This document shows positions 6,792-16,758 of a stretch of 18,103 bases of DNA, piece after piece. Both the position numbers and the translations under genes were made by a program. Source of the stretch: Pseudomonadota bacterium (lineage in GTDB: Bacteria > Pseudomonadota > Gammaproteobacteria > Burkholderiales > Burkholderiaceae_E); contig JBDLQY010000047.1 of NCBI GenBank assembly GCA_039800325.1, positions 1 to 18,103 of the forward strand, in the 5' to 3' direction. Numbering within the stretch: the first letter of the stretch is position 1; each line of letters opens with the position of its first letter. The notes beneath the pieces were generated by a model. That model had not been told where the DNA came from. It ran no database searches and was given only the letters and a program-made list of their open reading frames with translations.

Positions 6792-7139
6792 GGTCATAGC
6801 ACCGAAGAAAATACCGGCTGCGCTGCCTGACGCGGTTGTGTCGAAGCAGCCGTCCAAATTTTCACTGTCATGCTTCGTACCGACAACTTCGGGCCTACAA
6901 CTACCTTGACGCCAACCCGCTTTGGCTGTGAGTCTTGTCTGTGGACATTCAACAGGCTTAGCAGGAACCGCGCCCGTGTTGGACTTTGGCGGGGCTTACA
7001 AGCCATTTTTGCTATGCCTGTCATCCCCGTCGCCGGCGGCGTGAAAAACATCCCACTCTTGAGCGAAAAACCGCGTTTTCTTGCTGATTTAAGCGATTTT
7101 TGTGGCAACGCCAGGAAACAGAAGCTGCGAAAAGTCTGC

Positions 7140-7640
7140 TCATGACGGCAGGTCCGCTACCTGGCCTGAAGCAGCGCCTTTAACCTGATGGGGCTTGCGC
7201 CCAGTGATGGGTTGTGCCCGCATCCTTGCCATGGCACTTGTCAGCCAAGCATCCTGCTCTGCCTGCGGGGGCTGCGTGAAGGGCTTAGGAGCTTGCCTGC
7301 GAGCAACCGACGGCAGGCCCGAACCGAGCTGTTGAGATGGCACTCTTTGCGCAGGCTTGGGCGCAGAGCGTTGTCTTGGCTGTTGCGGGGCCTTAGCGCG
7401 CTTTGCTGAACCACGCTTGGAAGACGGAGACGCGGGTGCTTTAGGGGTGCCCCTTGTAGTAGGGGTCACTTTCTTACGTGCAGCGCTGGCGACCACGGAA
7501 GGCGAAGCCCCGCTTGATGCTCCCACCGGTTGGGCAGCCGCGCCTGAGGTCCCCTTCGTCAGTGCAGCCCACACGTTGTCAGAGATGAGCTTCCACAGCG
7601 CCAGCTGGTCCTCTGCACTCACAAACTCGAAAAATCGCAT
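7140..7640 (-). CDS. Hypothetical protein: short structured N-terminus plus long basic P/A/S/Q-rich low-complexity tail
   Basis: Strong RBS AAGGAGG lies 6 nt upstream of the ATG at 7640 (MRFFEFVSAEDQLALWKL...). I chose this start over the ORF-track start at 7769, which would run through the upstream terminator. Confidence 0.55.
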   Translation of the reverse strand: MRFFEFVSAEDQLALWKLISDNVWAALTKGTSGAAAQPVGASSGASPSVVASAARKKVTPTTRGTPKAPASPSSKRGSAKRAKAPQQPRQRSAPKPAQRVPSQQLGSGLPSVARRQAPKPFTQPPQAEQDAWLTSAMARMRAQPITGRKPHQVKGAASGQVADLPS

Positions 7641-7676
7641 GATTGGCCTCCTTTTCTTATATTTATCGTCAGAGGG

Positions 7677-7702
7677 AAAAAACCGGCCTTTATTGGCCGG
7701 TC
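7677..7702 (-). terminator. Rho-independent terminator-like hairpin after the 157-aa gene
   Basis: The minus strand reads GACCGGCC-AATAAA-GGCCGG followed by TTTTTT. It lies 18 nt after the stop of the 7720-8193 gene. Confidence 0.55.
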
Positions 7703-7719
7703 CTGTGGGGAGGTTGAAT

Positions 7720-8193
7720 CTAGACGGAAGCGGACTTGCGCAGCGAGAGCGTCTCCCGCTTGAATCCACGCTTCACATATCCACTGAGTGTTTCGATCTG
7801 CGCGTCTAGATCGCCACGATCGACCGCTTGCATGACGACCTCCAACGTCGCTATGACTTCGTCAAGACCTTGCGCCTCGATCGCATTCTTGCCCTTCTGT
7901 AGTTCCAGGGTCTTCGCTCCGTACTTGATGCACAGGTACGTTTTCCCGTCGTCTCCCAGCCACCACCATGGCCTGACCCGCTTTGGCAGCTCAACTGTCC
8001 GCCTCGCTCCAGTCTCTTGGTCAGCGATCGTCTTGAATCGCATCGGAGCGAACGTTGTTCCTTCCTTGCGTGCCTTTGCGAACTGGATCTGCTCACCAAT
8101 CTTGCTCACAAGCTTTCGCCGACGATGAACTTTGGGATCTGCTGAGGGCTGCCGCTTGGTCGCGACCAACTTAAGGGCGCTGATTCCTGACAT
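7720..8193 (-). CDS. Hypothetical 157-aa protein (contains the RVRPWWWLGDDGKTY segment)
   Basis: RBS GAAGGAG lies 6 nt upstream of the ATG at 8193 (MSGISALKLVATKRQ...). No motif I can name with confidence. Confidence 0.6.
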   Translation of the reverse strand: MSGISALKLVATKRQPSADPKVHRRRKLVSKIGEQIQFAKARKEGTTFAPMRFKTIADQETGARRTVELPKRVRPWWWLGDDGKTYLCIKYGAKTLELQKGKNAIEAQGLDEVIATLEVVMQAVDRGDLDAQIETLSGYVKRGFKRETLSLRKSASV

Positions 8194-8301
8194 TGCTACT
8201 CCTTCATGTGTTGCAGGAATCAGCAATTTATTTTCGAGGGTTCCGATAGAGCAACCGAACTGCAATGACCCGCCGCATTGAACGGACTCTGAAACCGGCG
8301 A

Positions 8302-9882
8302 TCAATCCTTGGCTGTACCAGCGCCCGTCACACGACTTCTTGCAAGCGACTCCTCGTGCTTGATCCAGTCCGTGTGCTCGCGCTGCTGGCGTTCCTCATC
8401 AAGCGACCGTGGCGTGAACCTTTCCAGCCTCTTCGGAGCCAGATGCCAGTACGGGTTGCCTGTTTGCTCGCGCAGCGTTAGCTCGATGTGATGCTTGAGA
8501 TCTGCCCCTAATCGCTTCTTGAAGAAGATCGCGTCATGTACGTTCGCAATGGGACGATGCCCATGCTCCGCCGCTACGCGACGGACGATATCCATCGTGG
8601 ACGTTTCGTCATGCTGGTAAAGGTAGGCAAGTAGCTTCGCCTTGCTCACTCTCCCCGACTCTGTTTGCAGGATCGTGAGTTTTGCAAGATCTGGATAGGA
8701 CTGCATGAACTTCTCGAAGATGTACTGGTCGAGCATCTTCTGTTCAGCGATGAAGCCCTTTACCACTTCATCCGAAAGGAAGCGCTCTCGCTCGGCAGCG
8801 TTCCTCAGGATATCTACCAGAGCTGGATTGACCCAGTTACCAGACCCGTCAGTCCAGCCCTTACCTGCCGCACGTGCGCCGAAGCTGATGGCGGTGAAAG
8901 CTTGCTTCAGTAGCGGCAGCTGGAAGTCCTTCGGCACCGCGCTGTCTTCTTGAAACGTGAAGTAGCGAACCGTTCCCATGAAGTCCGCCTTGTCCTCCAG
9001 ATACAGCAAAGACATCGGAAAGTACGCCTTGACATCGGGTCGTATGCCCATGTCGATGAGCAGATTCCTCGCAAAGCCCATCTTCCACGCCACGACGCTG
9101 CTGCGAATGTCGTACTCCCAGCAGTTGCCAAGCATCGCCCTTCTCAGCTGTTTATGCACGCTCTGCACGCTCAAACCGTCGTAGTACATCCGGCCAAACG
9201 CGCTGGGGTTCTTGCGCTGGACGAAGTACCCGTTGTTGACGTCTGCAATGCTCAGAATCGTCATGGCCTGCTGGGCGAGATGCGTCCGCTGACTAGTGCT
9301 CAGCAAGCTTGCGCCGTCGGTGAGCCATAAGGCGAAGGCTTTAAGCGACTCTTTGTCTACTGGAACAAGGTCAAAGATCTCGGCAAGCTTGTCTGCGCGC
9401 CACTGCGTTGTGAATTCCGGGAAGAGGAACCTGAAGAGCGCAAGCCGGGACTGCTGATTTCCCAGAAGCGCGGCTTCCAGTGCTGCATCGGAGTCCGCAT
9501 GTGAGACAGACTGAGCGACGTCGGTAGAGACAGTCTGCAGCGAAGCAAGTGCACTTAGCTTTACCTGGGAGTTCTGCTTGGTGAACTTCGAGCCCGTGAC
9601 AACCTTCTCGACCAGAGACAGGTTGTTGTCTGATAGCCATTTGTGCAGGCGTATCTTGTCTGGGCCGATTTGTCCTCCCTTGTTCGCGAGCTGCTGAAGG
9701 GAGATGCTGTACAGGTCGAACTTTCGCTGCTCCGGGGTTTGCCCGTGCTGGATCGCAGCGTGAAGCATCTGCTCCAGGACAGCGATGTACTTGTCAAGTG
9801 CACGCTGCGCTGCGGCTTTGGGCTTGGGGAACGCAAGCGTCAAAGCGTGCAACACAACAGGGTCGGCGGATATCTTGATCAT
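8302..9882 (-). CDS. Divergent family-A (Pol I/T7-like) polymerase-domain protein, with no exonuclease domain recognised
   Basis: Long 526-aa ORF. Motifs recognised by eye: SAFGRMYY..LSVQSV (pre-A), WEYDIRSS (motif A, Asp258), KADFMGTVRYF, LLKQAFTAISFG (motif B, Lys326/Phe334-Gly335), FMQSYPDL, ANVHDAIFF (motif C, His449-Asp450). There is no clear SD before the ATG at 9882, so the start is uncertain. Confidence refers to the functional call; the ORF itself is very likely real. Confidence 0.6.
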   Translation of the reverse strand: MIKISADPVVLHALTLAFPKPKAAAQRALDKYIAVLEQMLHAAIQHGQTPEQRKFDLYSISLQQLANKGGQIGPDKIRLHKWLSDNNLSLVEKVVTGSKFTKQNSQVKLSALASLQTVSTDVAQSVSHADSDAALEAALLGNQQSRLALFRFLFPEFTTQWRADKLAEIFDLVPVDKESLKAFALWLTDGASLLSTSQRTHLAQQAMTILSIADVNNGYFVQRKNPSAFGRMYYDGLSVQSVHKQLRRAMLGNCWEYDIRSSVVAWKMGFARNLLIDMGIRPDVKAYFPMSLLYLEDKADFMGTVRYFTFQEDSAVPKDFQLPLLKQAFTAISFGARAAGKGWTDGSGNWVNPALVDILRNAAERERFLSDEVVKGFIAEQKMLDQYIFEKFMQSYPDLAKLTILQTESGRVSKAKLLAYLYQHDETSTMDIVRRVAAEHGHRPIANVHDAIFFKKRLGADLKHHIELTLREQTGNPYWHLAPKRLERFTPRSLDEERQQREHTDWIKHEESLARSRVTGAGTAKD

Positions 9883-10400
9883 GAGACTGCGACGCGAGCG
9901 ATTGCGTTCTCCTCCTCAAGGTATTTAGCGTCACAGATGATCAAGTCACGGCAGCGTGAAGACAAGAAAAAGTCACACGCATATAGTAATTTCTGACTTG
10001 GCGAAGACCTGAGGCCGCCACCCCACAAGGAAGCCGGCGCAGCCGGTCGATACCACCGATCCACTCCTCTGCTGACGCTTGCGTCTTGCCCTGTTGCAGC
10101 GCAGCGTTGCTCGTGGCGTAAGTGCCACGGATATGTAGCGCTGTGGCGCTTTCGCCATGCTGACCGGTTGAGCGTTCAGCTCTTGCGACACGCTTAAACG
10201 CCCTACAGCACGCGATCTCGCAGTTGGGCATGCTGCGGGTGCTGCCCTACCTGTTTACGCGTTGTAGGGCGCCTACGTTGCTTGCGGGCGTTGGGCACTC
10301 TTTCAGTGCATTCGCTCCAGGAAAATCTAACAAAAGTCGCAATTTCCATTGTTTCGCCGCGGTAGCGTTGAAATCATTGAGGAAATTTACTGGGCAAAAG

Positions 10401-10409
10401 TTATCCACA
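10401..10409. promoter_or_regulatory. Perfect consensus DnaA box TTATCCACA
   Basis: Exact 9-mer at the edge of an AT-rich tract (about 10320-10400) in the noncoding region between the polymerase-like gene and the recombinase. Confidence 0.4.
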
Positions 10410-10563
10410 GCCTATTCGTCCAGGACCTCGGCTTACCACCCAACACTTTGATTGAGACGGGCATCTGGAAGAGTCCTTTCGCGCTGCCCGCACTTTGGTT
10501 GCCCGCATAAATACGAGAAAACAAAATGGCTGGACAACACGCAACGCAAAGGAGATCGCGCAG

Positions 10564-11136
10564 ATGGCACAGGCAAGGACACTGAACGCAGCAGAGCTCG
10601 AACGGGTACTAGCGCACATTGCAACCAGCCGACACTCAGTGCGTAACAGAGCGATGCTGCTGCTGACGCATTTAGCGGGCTTGCGTATAGGGGAAGTGGC
10701 TGCGCTGCGATGGTGCGACGTGGTAAACCAGGACGGCAGCGTTAAAGACGAAATCCGCTTGCTGGCCACGATGACCAAGGGCGGTCATGCTCGTACAGTG
10801 TTTGTGAGCAAACGACTACGCGAAGAACTGCAGCGGTACGCTAGCAGCACCAAATGCGTGGAAAGCGGCTACCCGTTCTTCTACAGTCAGAAGTCGGTGC
10901 GGCGCGGATTCACGCCTAACAGCCTATCTCAGACCATGTCGCTTCTGTATGCCCAGGCTGGGCTGGAAGGAGCCACCAGTCACAGCGGACGACGCTCGTT
11001 TCTGACCAATCTCGCGAACAAAGGCACCGCCATACACCTGCTTAAGGCGCTAGCCGGGCATCGCAACATATCCACGACTGCTACGTACCTTTACAGCAGC
11101 CCTGCCCAGCTCAAAGCTGTTGTGGAGCTGGTTTGA
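10564..11136 (+). CDS. Tyrosine site-specific recombinase, catalytic domain only (about 190 aa, FimB/FimE-sized)
   Basis: Catalytic residues appear in order: R (AGLRIGEV), K (TKGGHARTV), HxxR (HSGRRSF), H (GHRNISTT), Y (ATYLY). There is no N-terminal SAM-like/arm-binding domain. AAGGAG lies about 9 nt upstream of the ATG at 10564; the ORF-track start at 10495 is the alternative. Confidence 0.85.
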   Translation: MAQARTLNAAELERVLAHIATSRHSVRNRAMLLLTHLAGLRIGEVAALRWCDVVNQDGSVKDEIRLLATMTKGGHARTVFVSKRLREELQRYASSTKCVESGYPFFYSQKSVRRGFTPNSLSQTMSLLYAQAGLEGATSHSGRRSFLTNLANKGTAIHLLKALAGHRNISTTATYLYSSPAQLKAVVELV

Positions 11137-11499
11137 CGCCTATGGTGCTGGCGGAAACGGAGTCATACGGGGCCAAACGCGCCGAATTCCAACAAGGTCC
11201 AGTAAAAGCTGGCTCAGGATGGACGGTAAATAGGTTGGTAGGATCGCTGCGCGCCGCCAGTAAATCCCTCCGGAAATCGTAGATATCCGGCCACCTAAGC
11301 TGGAGCTCATGAGGAGAGCCTGGTCACTCCGAAGAGGTCTACGCAATATTGCTACACGCTAGGCGGTCAACGGGCAGCCTACATGGTGCCACGCCCAAGT
11401 GGGGCGTACGGATGTAACGCTGTCATGAGCAACACTCAACACCCCGGGAGGTCTGGTGGCGCCGTTGGTGTGGGTATTGCGATAGTTATGTTGTGCACC

Positions 11500-11695: not shown

Positions 11696-12640
11696 ATGCA
11701 AAGCACCCGCAAGGAAGTCGCCAACGCGGCCATCACCGGAAGTACCTGCTGGCGCCGTACCCAGTGGATGTTCGCGTTGGCTCTCCTGAGTGGAGCCGGG
11801 CTAACCACCCCATCTTTGGCAGCGGAGTGGGCTTTAGATGACGTGCGCGGCGCACGTTATGGCGGCGTGGAAGGAATCCCCGGAGAGTTTCATCTGGTCC
11901 AAGGTAAATGGACTGGTCAACCTCTCGATCCTGGGGCAGCCAGCAAGCCCACCGTGATGCTGCTGGACGACACCCTGGCCACCGGAGAGGCGGCAGGTGG
12001 CGCGCACCCCGAAGCGGCGGTTGTGTTGGCGGCCTCCTTTGGTGGCTCTGGCGTGTTTCACTATCTGGCCGTGTTGGAGCGGCGCGACGGCCGTCCGGTC
12101 AGTCGCCAGACGTGGGCACTGGGCGACCGGGTGCAGATCAAGCAGGTGCAAATCCATGGTCAGCGTATCCTCGTGGACATGGTTCGAAGCGGCCCCGGCG
12201 ACCCGGCTTGCTGCCCAACGGAATGGGTGACGCTTGCTTACGCTGTGGGGCAAGACCGGTCGATGGCTGTAGGACAGCCACGCCCTGTTCAACTTGCGGA
12301 TATCGGCGGCCCGAACTGGGTCCTGCGCACTTGGGGCGATGGTGAACAGGCACAATTGAACTCGTCGATATCCCTGACCTTCAAGGACGCCGCTTTGCGC
12401 GGGCATGCTGGGTGTAACTCTTATGTGGCCGGTACACAGGCAGGCGCGACCGGCAGCGCGCTCGCCATGGCGCCTGCAGCAACCACCCGAAAGATGTGCG
12501 AGCCCGACGTGATGCGCTCAGAGAGTCGTTTCCTTGAGGCGCTTGCACGCGCCGCCCGGTGGCGATTTGATGGTGGGCGTCTGGCGCTCAGTGCGGATGA
12601 TGGTTCGCCATTACTGACGTTCAGCCGTGAACCACGATGA
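11696..12640 (+). CDS. Secreted META-domain (HslJ-like) protein with an unassigned N-terminal domain
   Basis: The C-terminal half fits the META pattern (WVLRTW...ISLTFKDAALRGHAGCNSY...TRKMCEPDVMRSESRFLEAL...GGRLALS...LLTF). The N-terminus has WRRTQWMFALALLSGAGLTTPSLAA, which is signal-like and possibly Tat-like (RR). An alternative start is ATG 11768. The stop overlaps the next start (ATGA). Confidence 0.75.
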   Translation: MQSTRKEVANAAITGSTCWRRTQWMFALALLSGAGLTTPSLAAEWALDDVRGARYGGVEGIPGEFHLVQGKWTGQPLDPGAASKPTVMLLDDTLATGEAAGGAHPEAAVVLAASFGGSGVFHYLAVLERRDGRPVSRQTWALGDRVQIKQVQIHGQRILVDMVRSGPGDPACCPTEWVTLAYAVGQDRSMAVGQPRPVQLADIGGPNWVLRTWGDGEQAQLNSSISLTFKDAALRGHAGCNSYVAGTQAGATGSALAMAPAATTRKMCEPDVMRSESRFLEALARAARWRFDGGRLALSADDGSPLLTFSREPR

Positions 12641-14730
12641 CTGATCATGCCTGGCTAATGGAGGCGGCTCGTCGGGTACGCCCGGCTGCGGTTCCAACCG
12701 AACCGATTGCGCTTGCAGATGATTTGCAGATGGCTTGGTCTCAGGTCGCGAGGGCGAGCGGCCTTACACCGCGCGAGCTGGCGGCAGCCGTTGCGCTGAC
12801 GAACGGGCTCGATGCTGTAGACCCTAAGCAGATTGATTTTTCTCAAGCCAGCCTCCTGCCCGAAAGGATGTGCCGCCAGCAAGGCCTGGTGCCGGTGTCG
12901 CACGACGAAGCTACGCTGGTCATTGCGGTCAGCGATCCGCGGCTGCCGCTCGAGCAGCTACAAGCGTTGCGCTTCTCGGCTCAGCGCTCGATTCGTCTTG
13001 CTGTCATGGCACCTGACGACATCGATACCGCGCAGCTGCGCTTGTTCTCTCAGGAACACCGCAGCAAATCCGTCGGCGACTTGCCCGAGGTGGACCTCCT
13101 GGCTGACGATGGGGTGAGGAATGTGCCACAAGCCGTCAGCCTAGCCAAGGCCATCTTCCGGGCTGCGCTCGATCTGAATGCGTCTGACGTGCATGCCCAT
13201 CCCTTTGTGGGTGGTGGGGCGATCCGCCTGCGAGTGGATGGCGTCATGCGGCGCGTGTCGACCATCAATGCCTCTACGCTTGAGGCGCTGGCGCGCTACC
13301 TGAAAGCGCAGGCGGGCCTGGACCCCAACCCGCTCAAGCCCCAAGACGGACGACTGCGCCTGAGATACGGACGCCGCATGATTGACGTGCGGCTGTCCAT
13401 TCTTCCGGCATATGACGGCGACCGCATCGTTTGCAGGCTGCTTGACCAAAGCCGGAATTTCTCTTTGCAGTCGAGCGGTTTTTCTACGGCCGAGCAGCAA
13501 ACCTTGCAACGCCTGGTGCTGCGTGACGCAGGCATGGTCCTGTTGACTGGCCCGACGGGCTCTGGCAAGACGAGCACCCTGTACGCGCTGCTTTCGGAAC
13601 TCAACACCGTCGATGTGAACATCATGACGATCGAGGACCCCGTGGAGTACGTGTTGCCAGGTATCTCGCAGATCCAGGCGAACGAAAAGCAGGGGCGTTC
13701 ATTCGCCGACACCTTGCGGTCCATCTTGAGGCAAGACCCGGACATCGTGCTGGTCGGTGAAATTCGCGATGGTGAAACCGCACGCGTTGCAGCGCAAGCC
13801 GCATTGACAGGCCACCTTGTGCTGTCGACCCTGCATACGAACGACGCCATGGGAACGATCCCGCGGCTTCTTAACCTTGATCTTGATCCTGCGATCCTTG
13901 CCGACGCCTTGCTTGGCGTTGTGTCCCAGCGCCTGGTGCGCAAACTCTGCGAGGCATGCCGCGTCGCGCCATCCGTTCCCTATCGTCCGGGCGAGGAAGA
14001 GTTTCATCGGCTCACGGGCAGCTATCCGCGCTACCGCGCGCAGGGATGCAAGCGTTGCGCCATGACAGGCTTCCGCGGCCGGCTCCCGATCGTTGAGATA
14101 TTCGAGACAACCCGCGAGCTTCGCCACGCGATCCAGACAGGCGAGCACAGCTTGCGCGCCTTGACTGCCGCAGTGGGCGGCAGACACCACCTCATGTCCA
14201 GAAGTGCGGAGGCCCGGATCCGGGCCGGGGAGACCACGCCAGCGGAAGCCCAGCGGGCGATGGGAATGGGGTTCTGGTACGAGCTCGCCGAGTCACACGG
14301 CGTCGACACCGGGACGCTGCGTGACGAGTTGGCCGAGGAGGTTCTCGCCGGCCGGCGCTTGAGGGTGCTGGTTGTGTCGACCGACCCCCTGCTTGCAGAC
14401 GAGGTGCGAAGCGCCGTGCCCTACCAGCTGGATTGCGCTGACAGCGTGGCCGCTGCGTCCGAGGCGCTGGATCAGCAACTTGGCGTGATGGCGGTTGTCA
14501 TCGACGCGCATTTGATCGAAGCGGCCGGCGGGCATGCCTTGCGGGAGTCATTGGAAACGATGGCAAATGCCAGTCCGTGGGCAGGCTTGCCACTGCTGCT
14601 TGTCCGTGCAACGGCTGCGCCGGATGACGAGCAACTCCTGCCGGAACGTATTCGTGTTCTGACAGCGCAGGAGTCAACGGCCGAGCCGATGCGGCAGGCA
14701 CTTCTTCAATTGATGGGGCATCACGTATGA
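12637..14730 (+). CDS. PilB/GspE-family type IV filament assembly ATPase with an extra C-terminal receiver-like domain
   Basis: T2SSE N-terminal domain, Walker A GPTGSGKTS, Walker B DIVLVGEIRD, His box GHLVLSTLHTNDA, tetracysteine CEAC...CKRC. About 125 additional C-terminal residues have a CheY-like beta-alpha pattern (RVLVVSTDP...VVIDAHL...LPLLLV). Confidence 0.9.
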   Translation: MTDHAWLMEAARRVRPAAVPTEPIALADDLQMAWSQVARASGLTPRELAAAVALTNGLDAVDPKQIDFSQASLLPERMCRQQGLVPVSHDEATLVIAVSDPRLPLEQLQALRFSAQRSIRLAVMAPDDIDTAQLRLFSQEHRSKSVGDLPEVDLLADDGVRNVPQAVSLAKAIFRAALDLNASDVHAHPFVGGGAIRLRVDGVMRRVSTINASTLEALARYLKAQAGLDPNPLKPQDGRLRLRYGRRMIDVRLSILPAYDGDRIVCRLLDQSRNFSLQSSGFSTAEQQTLQRLVLRDAGMVLLTGPTGSGKTSTLYALLSELNTVDVNIMTIEDPVEYVLPGISQIQANEKQGRSFADTLRSILRQDPDIVLVGEIRDGETARVAAQAALTGHLVLSTLHTNDAMGTIPRLLNLDLDPAILADALLGVVSQRLVRKLCEACRVAPSVPYRPGEEEFHRLTGSYPRYRAQGCKRCAMTGFRGRLPIVEIFETTRELRHAIQTGEHSLRALTAAVGGRHHLMSRSAEARIRAGETTPAEAQRAMGMGFWYELAESHGVDTGTLRDELAEEVLAGRRLRVLVVSTDPLLADEVRSAVPYQLDCADSVAAASEALDQQLGVMAVVIDAHLIEAAGGHALRESLETMANASPWAGLPLLLVRATAAPDDEQLLPERIRVLTAQESTAEPMRQALLQLMGHHV

Positions 14731-14759
14731 GTTGCGCCACACGATCAAAGGAAGACCGC

Positions 14760-15518
14760 ATGAAACATCGTACGTACGGCTTCACGCTGATCGAAATTCT
14801 GGTGGGTATCGCCATCGTTGCAGTGCTGGCGGCGCTGGCGATTCCGTCGTATCAGTCCTACGTTACGCGAAGCCGCATCGCCGAAGCGCTGACGGCTGCT
14901 GATGCCGCGAGAACTACCGTGCAAGAGGCCCTGACCGCGGGGCAGCCTGTGGCAGCCGATTTACTGGCTTCGTCTGGAAAGGCGGCCGACGCCGTTCATT
15001 CGGTCCGTTGGCAGACTGCACCCGCAGGCTCGCCCGCTGCAGGAGCGATCGTGGCCAGCATCAACATTCCTGGCCTGGGGAAGCGCGCAGCACTTGCACT
15101 GGAGTGGCGCGCGGATGGCGGGTGGCACTGCGTCAGTGCCGAGGGCTATGCTGCAGGTGAAAAGTGGGTCGAGCCAGCCTACTTGCCATCCAGCTGCAAG
15201 GATGCAAGCCAGCCGATGCCGCATGTGATGGCGCACAACTCGGCGCCTGACGCTCAGACACCGGGCAGTCGCCCGGCTTGTCAGCCGAATCAGGTCGAAT
15301 TCGGCGGGCGTTGCAATGACGTTTGCAATCCGGGATGGGTGCGGCGCGGCACACAGTGTGAGCTCGCGCCAACCACCCAGATGGCTCCGCCTCAGCCGTC
15401 GGCCCCCGCGCTCCCGCAGTGCAAGCCGCATCAGGTTCTGGTCGCGGCAAACCAGACTTGCGTGAATGTCTGCTCGGAAGGATGGCGCATCAACGGCAAC
15501 CGATGCGCGCAGCTATGA
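14760..15518 (+). CDS. Type IV pilin (class III signal MKHRTYG/FTLIE) with a roughly 100-aa C-terminal Cys-repeat extension
   Basis: RBS AAAGGAAG lies before the ATG at 14760. Has G/FTLIE with Glu+5, a hydrophobic alpha1-N, and a D-region disulfide pair (WHC...PSSC). At 252 aa it is much longer than typical major pilins. Confidence 0.9.
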   Translation: MKHRTYGFTLIEILVGIAIVAVLAALAIPSYQSYVTRSRIAEALTAADAARTTVQEALTAGQPVAADLLASSGKAADAVHSVRWQTAPAGSPAAGAIVASINIPGLGKRAALALEWRADGGWHCVSAEGYAAGEKWVEPAYLPSSCKDASQPMPHVMAHNSAPDAQTPGSRPACQPNQVEFGGRCNDVCNPGWVRRGTQCELAPTTQMAPPQPSAPALPQCKPHQVLVAANQTCVNVCSEGWRINGNRCAQL

Positions 15519-16042
15519 CTTCAGACCAAGGACCACAAAGGAACAGCGCGCCGGATGCGAGCGACAGCATCGCGAGGATTCGCAGTCTCGCCCACGAGCA
15601 CCCGCGAGAGCCCACTCAGCCGGCTACGAACCGCGCGGCCCATGGTTCGACGCACCCGCAAGCGGCGCGGCGCGGTCGCCTGCTCCCCAAGGCGTCGATC
15701 GTCGTCTTGTGTGGATGTGCGCTGGCGGCTCTGGGGGCGTATCACTTTTGGGGACAGCGGGCGCCACCACCGCTTTCGGAAAGTGTGCGCTCCGTCGGCA
15801 CAGCAATCGCCGAACATGTGCGCGCGCATGGAAGCTTGCCCGCTTCGCTCACCGAGTTGAATGCTTTCCCCAAGTCCGCGCAAGAACGCGATGCAGATGC
15901 ACTCAAGCAACCGCCTGGCGCCAGTCTTGAGTTCTTCTATTTCAAGATGCCGCCTAGCGACTTCACCCTCATTGGAAGGAATTCCGGTGAAACGTGGATC
16001 TATCAGCCCGGGCAGGCGGACCCTGTGCGCCGTCTACCTTGA
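15515..16042 (+). CDS. Hypothetical single-pass membrane protein, translationally coupled to the pilin
   Basis: The ATG at 15515 overlaps the pilin stop (ATGA). One TM segment (ASIVVLCGCALAALGAYHFW) follows a charged N-terminal region. No named motif. Confidence 0.55.
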   Translation: MTSDQGPQRNSAPDASDSIARIRSLAHEHPREPTQPATNRAAHGSTHPQAARRGRLLPKASIVVLCGCALAALGAYHFWGQRAPPPLSESVRSVGTAIAEHVRAHGSLPASLTELNAFPKSAQERDADALKQPPGASLEFFYFKMPPSDFTLIGRNSGETWIYQPGQADPVRRLP

Positions 16043-16067: not shown

Positions 16068-16234
16068 GGCACCCTGGCTTGAAGGTCTGTCATCAGATGA
16101 CCGGACTTCGTTGCAGCGCGAGCAGCTGTCGCCTGCAAGTTCCTCGCGGCAGGGCGCTGGAAGACACACCGCCTGATGCTGATACCAGGCGGCAACAGGC
16201 GCCATCTCTGCTGATGTGGGTGAGGTTGGCTTCT

Positions 16235-16247
16235 GCCCACCAATTCC
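16235..16247 (+). repeat. 13-bp direct repeat GCCCACCAATTCC, copy 2
   Basis: Exact copy of 11500-11512. It lies in the intergenic region after the pilus-like operon. Confidence 0.35.
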
Positions 16248-16279
16248 GGTTTCGAACTACCCCCGAGAAGTTGGTGGCC

Positions 16280-16292
16280 CAAAAGGGCTCGT
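16280..16292 (+). repeat. 13-bp direct repeat CAAAAGGGCTCGT, copy 2
   Basis: Exact copy of 6779-6791. It lies just before the drop to lower GC at about 16300. Confidence 0.35.
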
Positions 16293-16434
16293 TCAACTAA
16301 CTCGCTTAGTTTTCAGGCCCCCTGTTTTTGGTGGGGTCGGGGATTCGAAGTCGGAGCTTGCCGGTTGGACGTTCAAAAATTCAGAGTTCGTGCTACCATT
16401 CGTCGATGCGATTCAACTTATCAACGAAAAAGAA

Positions 16435-16758
16435 ATGACGACCTCAAAGGCGTGGACCCTCGATGACGTGGCCAAGACTTTTCGCGCGTGCGAGAGCCTG
16501 TTCCACGCAATGGGTGATCCTGCTCGGCAACAGATCGTCTTGCTGCTGGCCGAGCATGAGCGCTTGAATGTGAATCAAATCACCGACCTGATGCATCTCT
16601 CACGCCCCTCCATCTCTCATCATCTGAAAGTGCTCAAAGATGCTGGCATGGTCAGTATTGCGCGCGAGTCGCGAGAAAACTTTTACAGCCTGTTGTGGGA
16701 TGAGCCGATTGGTCGCCTGAAGTTGCTGATTGAGCAGAGCGAGATCGCCTGTAGGTAA
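16435..16758 (+). CDS. ArsR/SmtB-family transcriptional regulator
   Basis: Winged-helix pattern (FHAMGDPARQQIVLLLAEHERLNVNQITDLMHLSRPSISHHLKVLKDAGMV). Starting at ATG 16435 gives 107 aa, typical for the family. The ORF-track start at 16216 was rejected. Confidence 0.85.
   Translation: MTTSKAWTLDDVAKTFRACESLFHAMGDPARQQIVLLLAEHERLNVNQITDLMHLSRPSISHHLKVLKDAGMVSIARESRENFYSLLWDEPIGRLKLLIEQSEIACR

Follow-up and report, generated by a model that had tools for sequence, protein, structure and literature searches.

A type IVa-like pilin with tandem four-cysteine modules encoded in a recurrent three-gene cassette of Proteobacteria

The window analyzed here, which is the whole stretch of 18,103 nt at positions 1 to 18,103 of contig JBDLQY010000047.1 (assembly GCA_039800325.1), comes from a Pseudomonadota bacterium of the Burkholderiaceae_E and encodes a modular pilin of 252 residues. 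In this protein a type IVa-like pilin module, predicted to be complete in itself, is followed by a tail in which two small, related four-cysteine modules are set on linkers. A first-pass annotation, made by reading the DNA and its translations, had placed the protein among the modular pilins, and it fits the published definition of that class structurally (PMC8179133), having a self-complete pilin module that ends at residue 146 and extra modules joined to it by linkers. The same arrangement is maintained in two diverged orthologues, and related pilins with other numbers of modules, or with none, occur beside orthologous assembly ATPases in other Proteobacteria. On balance it is probable that the tail acts as a display, binding or stalk element on a type IVa filament.

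The Pilin Module

The pilin open reading frame (ORF) occupies positions 14727-15518 of the forward strand, on which all of the pilin features described below also lie. Translation likely begins at the ATG at 14760 and not at the ATG at 14727, because a Shine-Dalgarno-like AAGGAAG can be read from the sequence at 14748-14754, 5 nt 5' of the former; public gene callers give the identical 252-residue product (P0001). This product contains ten cysteines, at residues 124, 146, 174, 185, 189, 200, 221, 234, 238 and 249.

The N-terminus has the form of a class III signal (IPR012902), in which the Gly-ended leader MKHRTYG (7 residues, 14760-14780) is followed by FTLIEILVGIAIVAVLAALAIP, with Glu5 and a hydrophobic stretch. 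Both the Pfam N_methyl model (PF07963; 26.7 bits against a cut-off of 21.2) and TIGR02532 (27.1 against 16.3) recognize it, and prepilin peptidase is predicted to cut after Gly7 to leave a mature N-terminus of FTLIE, again with Glu5. The pilin module proper, with its α1 helix, β-sheet and D-region, comprises residues 8-146 (14781-15197) and matches the Pfam Pilin family PF00114 over profile positions 1-108 of 108 with 39.3 bits against a cut-off of 22. A leader of less than 10 residues combined with a globular αβ domain above the PF00114 gathering score is the mark of a type IVa pilin, and the closest solved structures are likewise major type IVa pilins, namely PAK PilA (1oqw, E 1.5e-12, aligned up to the WHC motif), FimA and PilE. 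The models for GspG through GspK did not match the module beyond the N-terminal helix.

The end of the pilin module is marked by C124 (15129-15131) and C146 (15195-15197), which are 21 residues apart and invariant in 16 of 16 aligned family members, and a disulfide between them would close the D-region. An AlphaFold2 model built on a 16-sequence alignment gave residues 10-150 a predicted local distance difference test score (pLDDT) of 80-93, with a helix at residues 10-59 and four strands. Foldseek comparison of the full pilin model with the PDB returned nothing significant, the top entry being a truncated P. aeruginosa pilin at E 0.67; because lollipop-shaped pilin models typically give such results, the identification as a pilin rests on the sequence evidence. 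The first-pass annotation had the type IVa-like fold complete at the D-region disulfide, and the PF00114 match, the PAK pilin match and the AlphaFold2 model agree on that point. Thus, the type IVa pilin fold is predicted to be complete at the C124-C146 D-region, before the tail begins.

The Cysteine Modules

The tail opens with linker 1 (residues 147-173, KDASQPMPHVMAHNSAPDAQTPGSRPA, 15198-15278), which is predicted to be disordered and varies in length among orthologues. Module 1 follows at residues 174-200 (CQPNQVEFGGRCNDVCNPGWVRRGTQC, 15279-15359) and is separated from module 2 (residues 221-249, CKPHQVLVAANQTCVNVCSEGWRINGNRC, 15420-15506) by the Pro-rich linker 2 (residues 201-220, ELAPTTQMAPPQPSAPALPQ, 15360-15419), also predicted to be disordered and of different length in the window protein and in each of its two orthologues. 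Only the residues AQL and a TGA stop remain (15507-15518), and the stop, as read from the sequence, overlaps the start of the next gene in an ATGA. The initial reading of the tail, as a linker and then two related modules of equal cysteine spacing with a Pro-rich separator, is borne out by the cysteine positions and by a shuffle test, and its module coordinates proved exact, corresponding to C174-C200 and C221-C249.

The cysteines of both modules are spaced C-x10/12-C-x3-C-x10-C, and a GW follows the third. Their BLOSUM62 local alignment scores 64, a value reached by 1 of 5000 shuffles whether the cysteines were held fixed or left free, and at the DNA level a 24-nt echo occurs 141 nt apart. 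When 14 modules from 8 pilins were aligned (alignment A8), the four cysteines (C1 to C4) and a Gly at the second position beyond C3 were invariant; the unit can thus be written C-x-P-x-Q-x(n)-C-x3-C-x2-G-x(7-10)-C, with the fuller consensus C-x-P-[NH]-Q-[VIL]-x(4-6)-[GT]-x-C-x-[ND]-V-C-x2-G-[WYF]-x3-G-x2-C. Positions other than the cysteines are also conserved, specifically P, Q, the GW/GY/GF motif and G. Copies of module 1 from different orthologues are closer to one another than to module 2; therefore, the duplication predates the three lineages of the short form.

When the tail was modeled with AlphaFold2 together with the tails of the two orthologues, each module came out as a pair of successive β-hairpins at a pLDDT of 72-76, with strands 14-17/20-25 and 29-32/35-38 for module 1 in the tail model; over the tail and full-length models, module 2 reached 72-77. 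Linkers 1 and 2 fall below 50, as does the full model at residues 162-172 within linker 1. Pairing of C1 with C2 and of C3 with C4 would give one disulfide per hairpin.

The repeat was not recognized in the first-pass annotation, and this proves justified. No Pfam family exceeded its threshold on the tail or on the homologous modules, a PDB sequence search with the tail gave no match, and Foldseek of the tail model gave nothing significant (best E 0.26). A word-indexed homology search with the whole pilin recovered only the window protein itself and generic pilin N-termini, and with the tail alone no candidate that shared enough words. A HMMER search of 1.84 billion representatives with the 104-residue tail found one true relative, the orthologous pilin P0006; three further matches (P0007-P0009) were rejected on inspection as low-complexity, FN3 or sushi-like noise. 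DUF5874 (PF19202) was likewise considered and rejected, since the tail reached 23.4 bits and module 2 alone 21.5 against a gathering score of 27.1, over profile positions 6-35 of 74. That match is also inconsistent, being confined to 1 of 14 homologous modules, module 2 of the window, and absent from P0006.

What weak resemblance there is points toward small disulfide-rich modules. Partial Pfam matches below threshold were obtained to EGF_MSP1_1 (E 0.034, 14.6 bits against 27), EGF_Teneurin (E 0.31-0.57) and cEGF (E 0.088). The A8 profile searched against the PDB placed the TNFR-like cysteine-rich domain (CRD) 1 of human cytomegalovirus (HCMV) UL144 at the top, across the whole module and with a non-significant E of 0.082, followed by further weak matches to insect ENF peptides (the C-terminal EGF hairpin) and R-spondin furin repeats. 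The non-significant Foldseek list for the tail consisted mostly of EGF repeats from NELL1/2, uromodulin, Pvs25 and FVII/FIX, and also held insulin-receptor and HER3 Cys-rich regions, the TNFR 4-1BB (E 3.6) and unrelated entries such as reovirus σ1. An EGF-like domain is defined by six cysteines paired 1-3, 2-4 and 5-6 and by an above-threshold model match; the module has four cysteines, not six, and no EGF model above threshold. These matches are used here to describe a fold class and not to assign membership, and from its predicted structure the module is accordingly described as a putative β-hairpin minidomain with two disulfides, akin to the modules of EGF, TNFR-CRD and furin repeats but not assigned to any of these families.

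Conservation of the Short Form

Four Logan contigs, each assembled from a different sequencing run, carry the pilin gene with identical DNA, and an identical pilin protein is also encoded on a JGI contig. Two orthologues share about 50-56% identity with the window pilin, namely P0006 (305 residues, HMMER E 8e-9) and P0024 (282 residues, found by profile search). Both have the order pilin, linker, module 1, linker, module 2, stop, in the same reading frame and with the same stop as the window pilin, and both keep synteny and 10 of 10 cysteines. Two circumstances had been named at the outset that would speak against a genuine tail, loss of the tail in relatives and a sequencing error that merged two ORFs; instead all 8 tail cysteines are invariant in P0006 and P0024, and the ORF is identical in independent assemblies.

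Relative to P0006, the ratio of nonsynonymous to synonymous substitution (dN/dS) is 0.30 for the pilin module, 0.31 for the Cys modules and 0.55-0.63 for the linkers (0.55 for linker 1), in a comparison whose synonymous sites are saturated (dS >1). The linkers of P0006, including linker 1, also contain large indels. Of the substitutions in a close strain variant of the window protein (P0050), 7 fall in the leader or the pilin module and only 1 in the tail. These ratios indicate that the short form, comprising the window pilin, P0006 and P0024, is under purifying selection.

Searches for wider distribution were made in several collections. A search of IMG/VR gave no relatives, and a phage origin was rejected. 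A scan of JGI metagenomes returned only generic pilin N-termini, and one locus from that scan (L107) was rejected as an unrelated pseudopilin.

Long and Plain Relatives

A genome scan with the assembly ATPase encoded directly upstream of the pilin gene identified 16 loci with orthologous ATPases (47-61% identity), which are distributed over Burkholderiales, Rhodocyclaceae, Sideroxydans, Lysobacteraceae and Neptuniibacter. Six of the orthologous ATPases lie beside long-form pilins of 368-496 residues with 16-26 cysteines (L005:8106-9365, L007:49-1155, L009:3976-5220, L013:2330-3820, L016:3907-5154 and L018:8063-9508), and the longest modular pilins among the profile-search matches reach 550 residues. 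The tails of these long forms contain 1-4 modules of the type C-xn-C-x3-C-xm-C, Pro/Ala-rich linkers and a conserved terminal domain; one module in L013, CQPNEAFSISMGRCFKRCNVGWYFIAGSSQC, is close to module 1 of the window. In other Betaproteobacteria, three orthologous cassettes have plain two-cysteine pilins of ~200 residues without a Cys tail, together with a diverged partner gene (L008:3745-4341, L010:1616-2200 and L012:8087-8716). Because orthologous cassettes carry either plain pilins or pilins with 1-4 modules, the tail is an optional graft within one cassette family, and the term "grafted" chosen in the first-pass annotation is supported by this distribution.

The terminal domain of the long forms occupies the last ~95-120 codons and contains 8-10 cysteines with the motif ...F-x-C-x-F-x-C-x4-C-N. 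All members (12 of 12) match the Pfam family QVR (Quiver, u-PAR/Ly-6-like) over its whole profile, with a best E of 2.9e-6 and all below the gathering score; stray matches to UPAR_LY6, ecTbetaR2 and Activin_recp were also seen, and no PDB sequence match was found. One possible reading is that of a bacterial three-finger domain carried outward by a pilin stalk; the window protein has no such terminal domain.

The tail of the L018 pilin, from Neptuniibacter sp. PT1 (AP025763), contains a near-exact tandem duplication of a ~38-residue unit, ...PVPTAN[KQ]A[PS]SGPAPITKCPGTLKLGSDGRCHT..., which consists of a two-cysteine half-module and its linker. This suggests a recent repeat expansion in the stalk.

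The Cassette and Its Surroundings

The pilin gene is the third of four co-oriented, overlapping genes, in the order META-domain gene, ATPase, pilin and partner. The second of these (12637-14730, forward strand) encodes a PilB/GspE-like assembly ATPase of 697 residues with MshEN and T2SSE domains (PF00437, E 4.5e-105). Residues 572-697 (14350-14727, forward strand) form a putative CheY-like receiver-fold domain: a profile of this region from 10 ATPase orthologues (A9) matches CheY 1udr over its full length at E 9.4e-5, and an invariant Asp aligns with D57. The N-terminal acidic pair of this domain is degenerate, and as a single sequence it has no Pfam match.

The partner gene (15515-16042, forward strand) encodes a bitopic membrane protein of 175 residues, unassigned to any family, with a disordered N-terminus, one transmembrane helix and, after the helix, a conserved domain of ~85 residues that is presumably periplasmic. 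Its start overlaps the pilin stop (ATGA) both in the window and in L085, indicating translational coupling. A profile of the partner (alignment A5) finds a match beside every modular pilin, at E 1e-30 to 1e-94, and diverged copies beside the plain pilins, at E about 1e-5 to 1e-6. The protein has no Pfam or PDB match; a GspG-like or pilin-like nature was considered, and hhalign with an XcpT sequence aligned the expected helix (GspG-type α1C) at a non-significant probability of 3%. At one further locus (L087) pilin and partner occur with no ATPase within 10 kb. Across these loci the recurrent unit is the receiver-fused ATPase, the pilin and the partner, with the Cys tail as an add-on in a subset.

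A family of cassette-borne Cys-module pilins, comprising the window protein, P0006, P0024 and the long forms, is proposed on the basis of four features. The pilin module has a D-region of the form YLPxSC, and one or more modules of the form C-x(10-19)-C-x3-C-x2-G-x(7-10)-C are present; a partner gene of the A5 type lies next to the pilin gene, as does, usually, a gene for an ATPase of about 690-700 residues with a C-terminal receiver-like domain. The window possesses all four.

The first of the four genes (11696-12640, forward strand) encodes a 314-residue protein with a C-terminal META domain (PF03724, E 2.9e-22) and looks co-transcribed with the cassette because its end shares 4 nt with the start of the ATPase gene. 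This gene was rejected as a component of the system since it is not conserved in relatives, tblastn finding no copy in the 16 related loci. Similar TetR-family regulator genes lie just upstream of the cassette in L005 (4609-5178) and L016 (3297-3878), and a response regulator with two receiver domains lies directly 3' of the ATPase in L016 (8124-8963); these are candidate regulators, and neither type occurs in the window. The Neptuniibacter cassette adjoins a possible transposase fragment, as judged by eye.

Upstream of the pilus operon, between a block of ABC-transporter and metallophosphatase genes and the cassette, lies a stretch of lower guanine-cytosine (GC) content (~6800-11200; GC 0.55-0.58 against 0.62-0.66 elsewhere). 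Its ORFs, at 7140-7769 (-), 7720-8265 (-), 8302-9882 (-) and 10495-11136 (+), comprise a DUF6641 gene, two ORFs without a family (209 and 526 residues) and a short tyrosine-recombinase gene or fragment (213 residues). A genomic island is one possibility, and a search of the boundaries revealed neither a tRNA nor flanking direct repeats. Promoter and terminator scans found nothing. On the other side of the cassette, two contigs from different runs (L001 and L002) both end at window position ~16337, shortly after the partner gene and within the 5' portion of an ArsR-family ORF (16216-16758), which suggests a strain-variable junction or a repeat at this point.

Proposed Role and Alternative Explanations

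From these observations we infer that the pilin is incorporated into a filament, that the tail cysteines pair as disulfides and that the tail serves in display or binding. The prepilin would lose its 7-residue leader and, like other members of its family, polymerize through α1 into a type IV filament. The tail of about 105 residues, grafted after the D-region disulfide at what would be the surface-exposed C-terminus, would begin with a flexible Pro-rich tether and continue with the 27-residue module, a second Pro-rich tether and the 29-residue module. The C-terminus would thereby project disulfide-stabilized modules outward from the filament surface, where they may act either in binding or adhesion or as a stalk. 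The receiver-like domain of the ATPase may gate assembly, and the resident type IV pilus machinery is presumably used because the cassette is without a platform protein, a secretin and a prepilin peptidase. The window protein and its two orthologues would then represent a "stalk-only" short form, to which the long relatives add a Ly6/uPAR-like head.

Several observations weigh against such a display, binding or stalk role, which nevertheless is considered somewhat more probable than its negation. A tail of ~105 residues on every subunit might hinder passage through the secretin. The modules have no significant sequence or structure match to a characterized binding module in Pfam, the PDB or Foldseek, and the AlphaFold2 confidence for them is moderate. 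The family is rare, with about 20 pilin-family clusters returned by a profile search of 5.8 billion clusters. Neither the window nor the 10-kb flanks of related loci contain genes for PilC, PilD or PilQ, and no minor-pilin genes lie nearby; the ATPase, which scores 400.8 bits with the GspE model and 371 bits with the PilB model, falls under both equivalog cut-offs. Finally, the modules of the long relatives have the appearance of spacers set under a head domain, which is missing from the window protein.

This last point leads to the most serious alternative, that the modules are rigid spacers and nothing else, the functional unit being the Ly6/uPAR-like head of the long forms. The head would have been lost from the short form, or never present in it, and the remaining tail might act as a steric "brush", for example in phage or antibody masking or in altered bundling. 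In the long relatives a stalk role is indeed favored because the modules sit between the pilin and the terminal head, joined by Pro/Ala-rich linkers (L005, L007, L009, L013, L016 and L018); their number varies from 1 to 4, as that of spacers would, and EGF, TNFR and furin-type modules are commonly spacers. The short form, however, is maintained in three diverged lineages with a module dN/dS of about 0.3, the conserved positions other than cysteine (P, Q, GW/GY/GF and G) exceed what a pure spacer would need, and the orthologues of module 1 and module 2 each retain their own identity. A purely structural stalk is therefore considered unlikely, if still a credible competitor.

A second alternative, judged decidedly improbable, holds that the cassette builds a periplasmic pseudopilus of the type II secretion or endopilus type, with the tail as a cargo-binding or plug element in the periplasm or in an outer-membrane channel. 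The higher score of the ATPase with GspE than with PilB is in its favor, as is the lack of minor pilins, PilY1 and a retraction ATPase in the cassette, and modular pseudopilins such as GspK are known (PMC8179133). Against it, the pilin module fits PF00114 and the PAK, PilE and FimA structures, and the models for GspG through GspK go no further than its N-terminal helix; the neighborhood, both here and at the related loci, contains none of the type II secretion genes for GspC, GspD, GspF, GspL and GspM, and the ATPase stays below the GspE equivalog cut-off of 630.

The eight tail cysteines, which include C-x3-C pairs, might instead bind metal in the manner of a zinc ribbon or redox center and make the tail a metal-sensing or redox element; stray weak matches to Fer4_6 (E 4) and, for the head domain of the relatives, to a Zn-binding PDB chain could be read in this way. 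Pilin C-termini are exported to an oxidizing compartment, though, and the spacing and the G-aromatic motif fit disulfide-rich extracellular modules and include no conserved His or Asp ligand. All of the weak matches that show any consistency are to disulfide modules, and metal binding is accordingly very unlikely. An artefact, in which a frameshift, an assembly chimera or a read-through fused the pilin to an unrelated ORF, has as its sole point in favor that the short form is known solely from metagenome assemblies, and is effectively excluded by the identical DNA and protein in independent assemblies, by the two orthologues that keep frame, modules and stop, and by the ATGA coupling to the downstream gene in both the window and L085.

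The display, binding or stalk role can be extended into a more speculative proposal, to which we give little credence at present, that the locus is the short form of a previously undescribed, self-contained "plug-in" type IV filament cassette of receiver-fused ATPase, pilin and bitopic partner which displays modules of eukaryotic type, that is, EGF/TNFR-CRD-like hairpins and, in the long forms, a Ly6/uPAR-like three-finger domain. Were this correct, the cassette would define a new class of pilus-borne mimics of ligands or receptors, which aquatic Beta- and Gammaproteobacteria might use to engage eukaryotic hosts or prey, and it would place such folds, unusually for bacteria, on a filament subunit.

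Comparison with Known Systems

Type IV pili gain functions by grafting modules onto pilins, and the known catalogue of such modules has been built from domains that bear signatures. Modular pilins were established with PilB (pilin and vWA) and PilC (pilin and lectin) of Streptococcus sanguinis (Raynaud et al. 2021, PMC8179133), and the accompanying census counted >1,200 proteins in 264 architectures, with second modules defined by InterPro, its authors noting that modules without signatures would be missed (PMC8179133). Because the module described here is without an InterPro signature, a Cys-module pilin would have been invisible to that census. The long-form relatives, including those of the cultured Pseudoalteromonas porphyrae and Neptuniibacter sp. 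PT1, are annotated generically, for example as "pilin". A literature search found no paper on Cys-rich or Ly6-type pilins or on DUF5874, and no description of a receiver-fused PilB or extension ATPase. The locus thus ties an unsignatured type of module to a compact, recurrent three-gene cassette with a receiver-fused ATPase. It provides leads to a putative small disulfide-stabilized display or binding module for pili, to culturable Pseudoalteromonas and Neptuniibacter relatives with a possible bacterial three-finger domain, and to the relation between an accessory ATPase-pilin pair and the resident pilus machinery, which such a pair may use or compete for.

Among solved pilins, the window protein resembles PAK PilA (1oqw) and Neisseria PilE in its short leader, F+1/E+5, α1, four-stranded sheet and C-terminal D-region. 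Whereas these pilins end a few residues past the D-region, the window pilin runs about 105 residues further and has eight more cysteines. With S. sanguinis PilB and PilC it shares a complete N-terminal pilin module, a linker and one or more C-terminal modules that are dispensable for the pilin fold. Those proteins differ in being minor pilins of a monoderm host, each with one large known domain (vWA or lectin), while the window pilin combines a proteobacterial diderm host and a major type IVa-like scaffold with tiny tandem four-cysteine modules on Pro-rich tethers, and travels with its own ATPase and partner gene. A similar succession of pilin, flexible linker and repeat-type extra domains is found in CofB of enterotoxigenic Escherichia coli, which has been proposed as a tip adaptor (PMC8179133). 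CofB, however, is a trimeric type IVb minor pilin whose β-repeat and β-sandwich domains are not Cys-rich, and no sequence relation to it was detected.

The modules themselves are similar to the C-terminal half of EGF, to TNFR CRDs such as HCMV UL144 CRD1 and to R-spondin furin repeats, with which they share the pattern C-x-P-x-[QE]-V-x4-6-C...C-x2-G-[YWF]-x3-G-x2-C and two predicted hairpins. They differ from all of these in having four cysteines where the others have six and in their bacterial host. The matches are all non-significant (best E 0.03-0.3) and do not point to common descent.

The closest comparison is with the long forms, which are found in Neptuniibacter sp. PT1 (AP025763; P0010, 481 residues), in Pseudoalteromonas porphyrae (WP_054206495.1 and WP_054455630.1), in Pseudoalteromonas sp. 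(WP_169328556.1) and in loci of Rhodocyclaceae, Propionivibrio and Burkholderiales metagenome-assembled genomes (L005, L009, L013 and L016). They share with the window protein the cassette, with its C-terminally extended ATPase and its partner, as well as the YLPxSC D-region, the modules and the Pro-rich linkers; they differ in their length of 368-550 residues and in ending in a domain of ~95 residues that resembles Ly6/uPAR. What is new in the window pilin, when set beside these known systems, is a tandem, tiny four-cysteine unit of predicted hairpins on a major type IVa-like scaffold in a diderm bacterium, encoded in a genetic cassette of its own.

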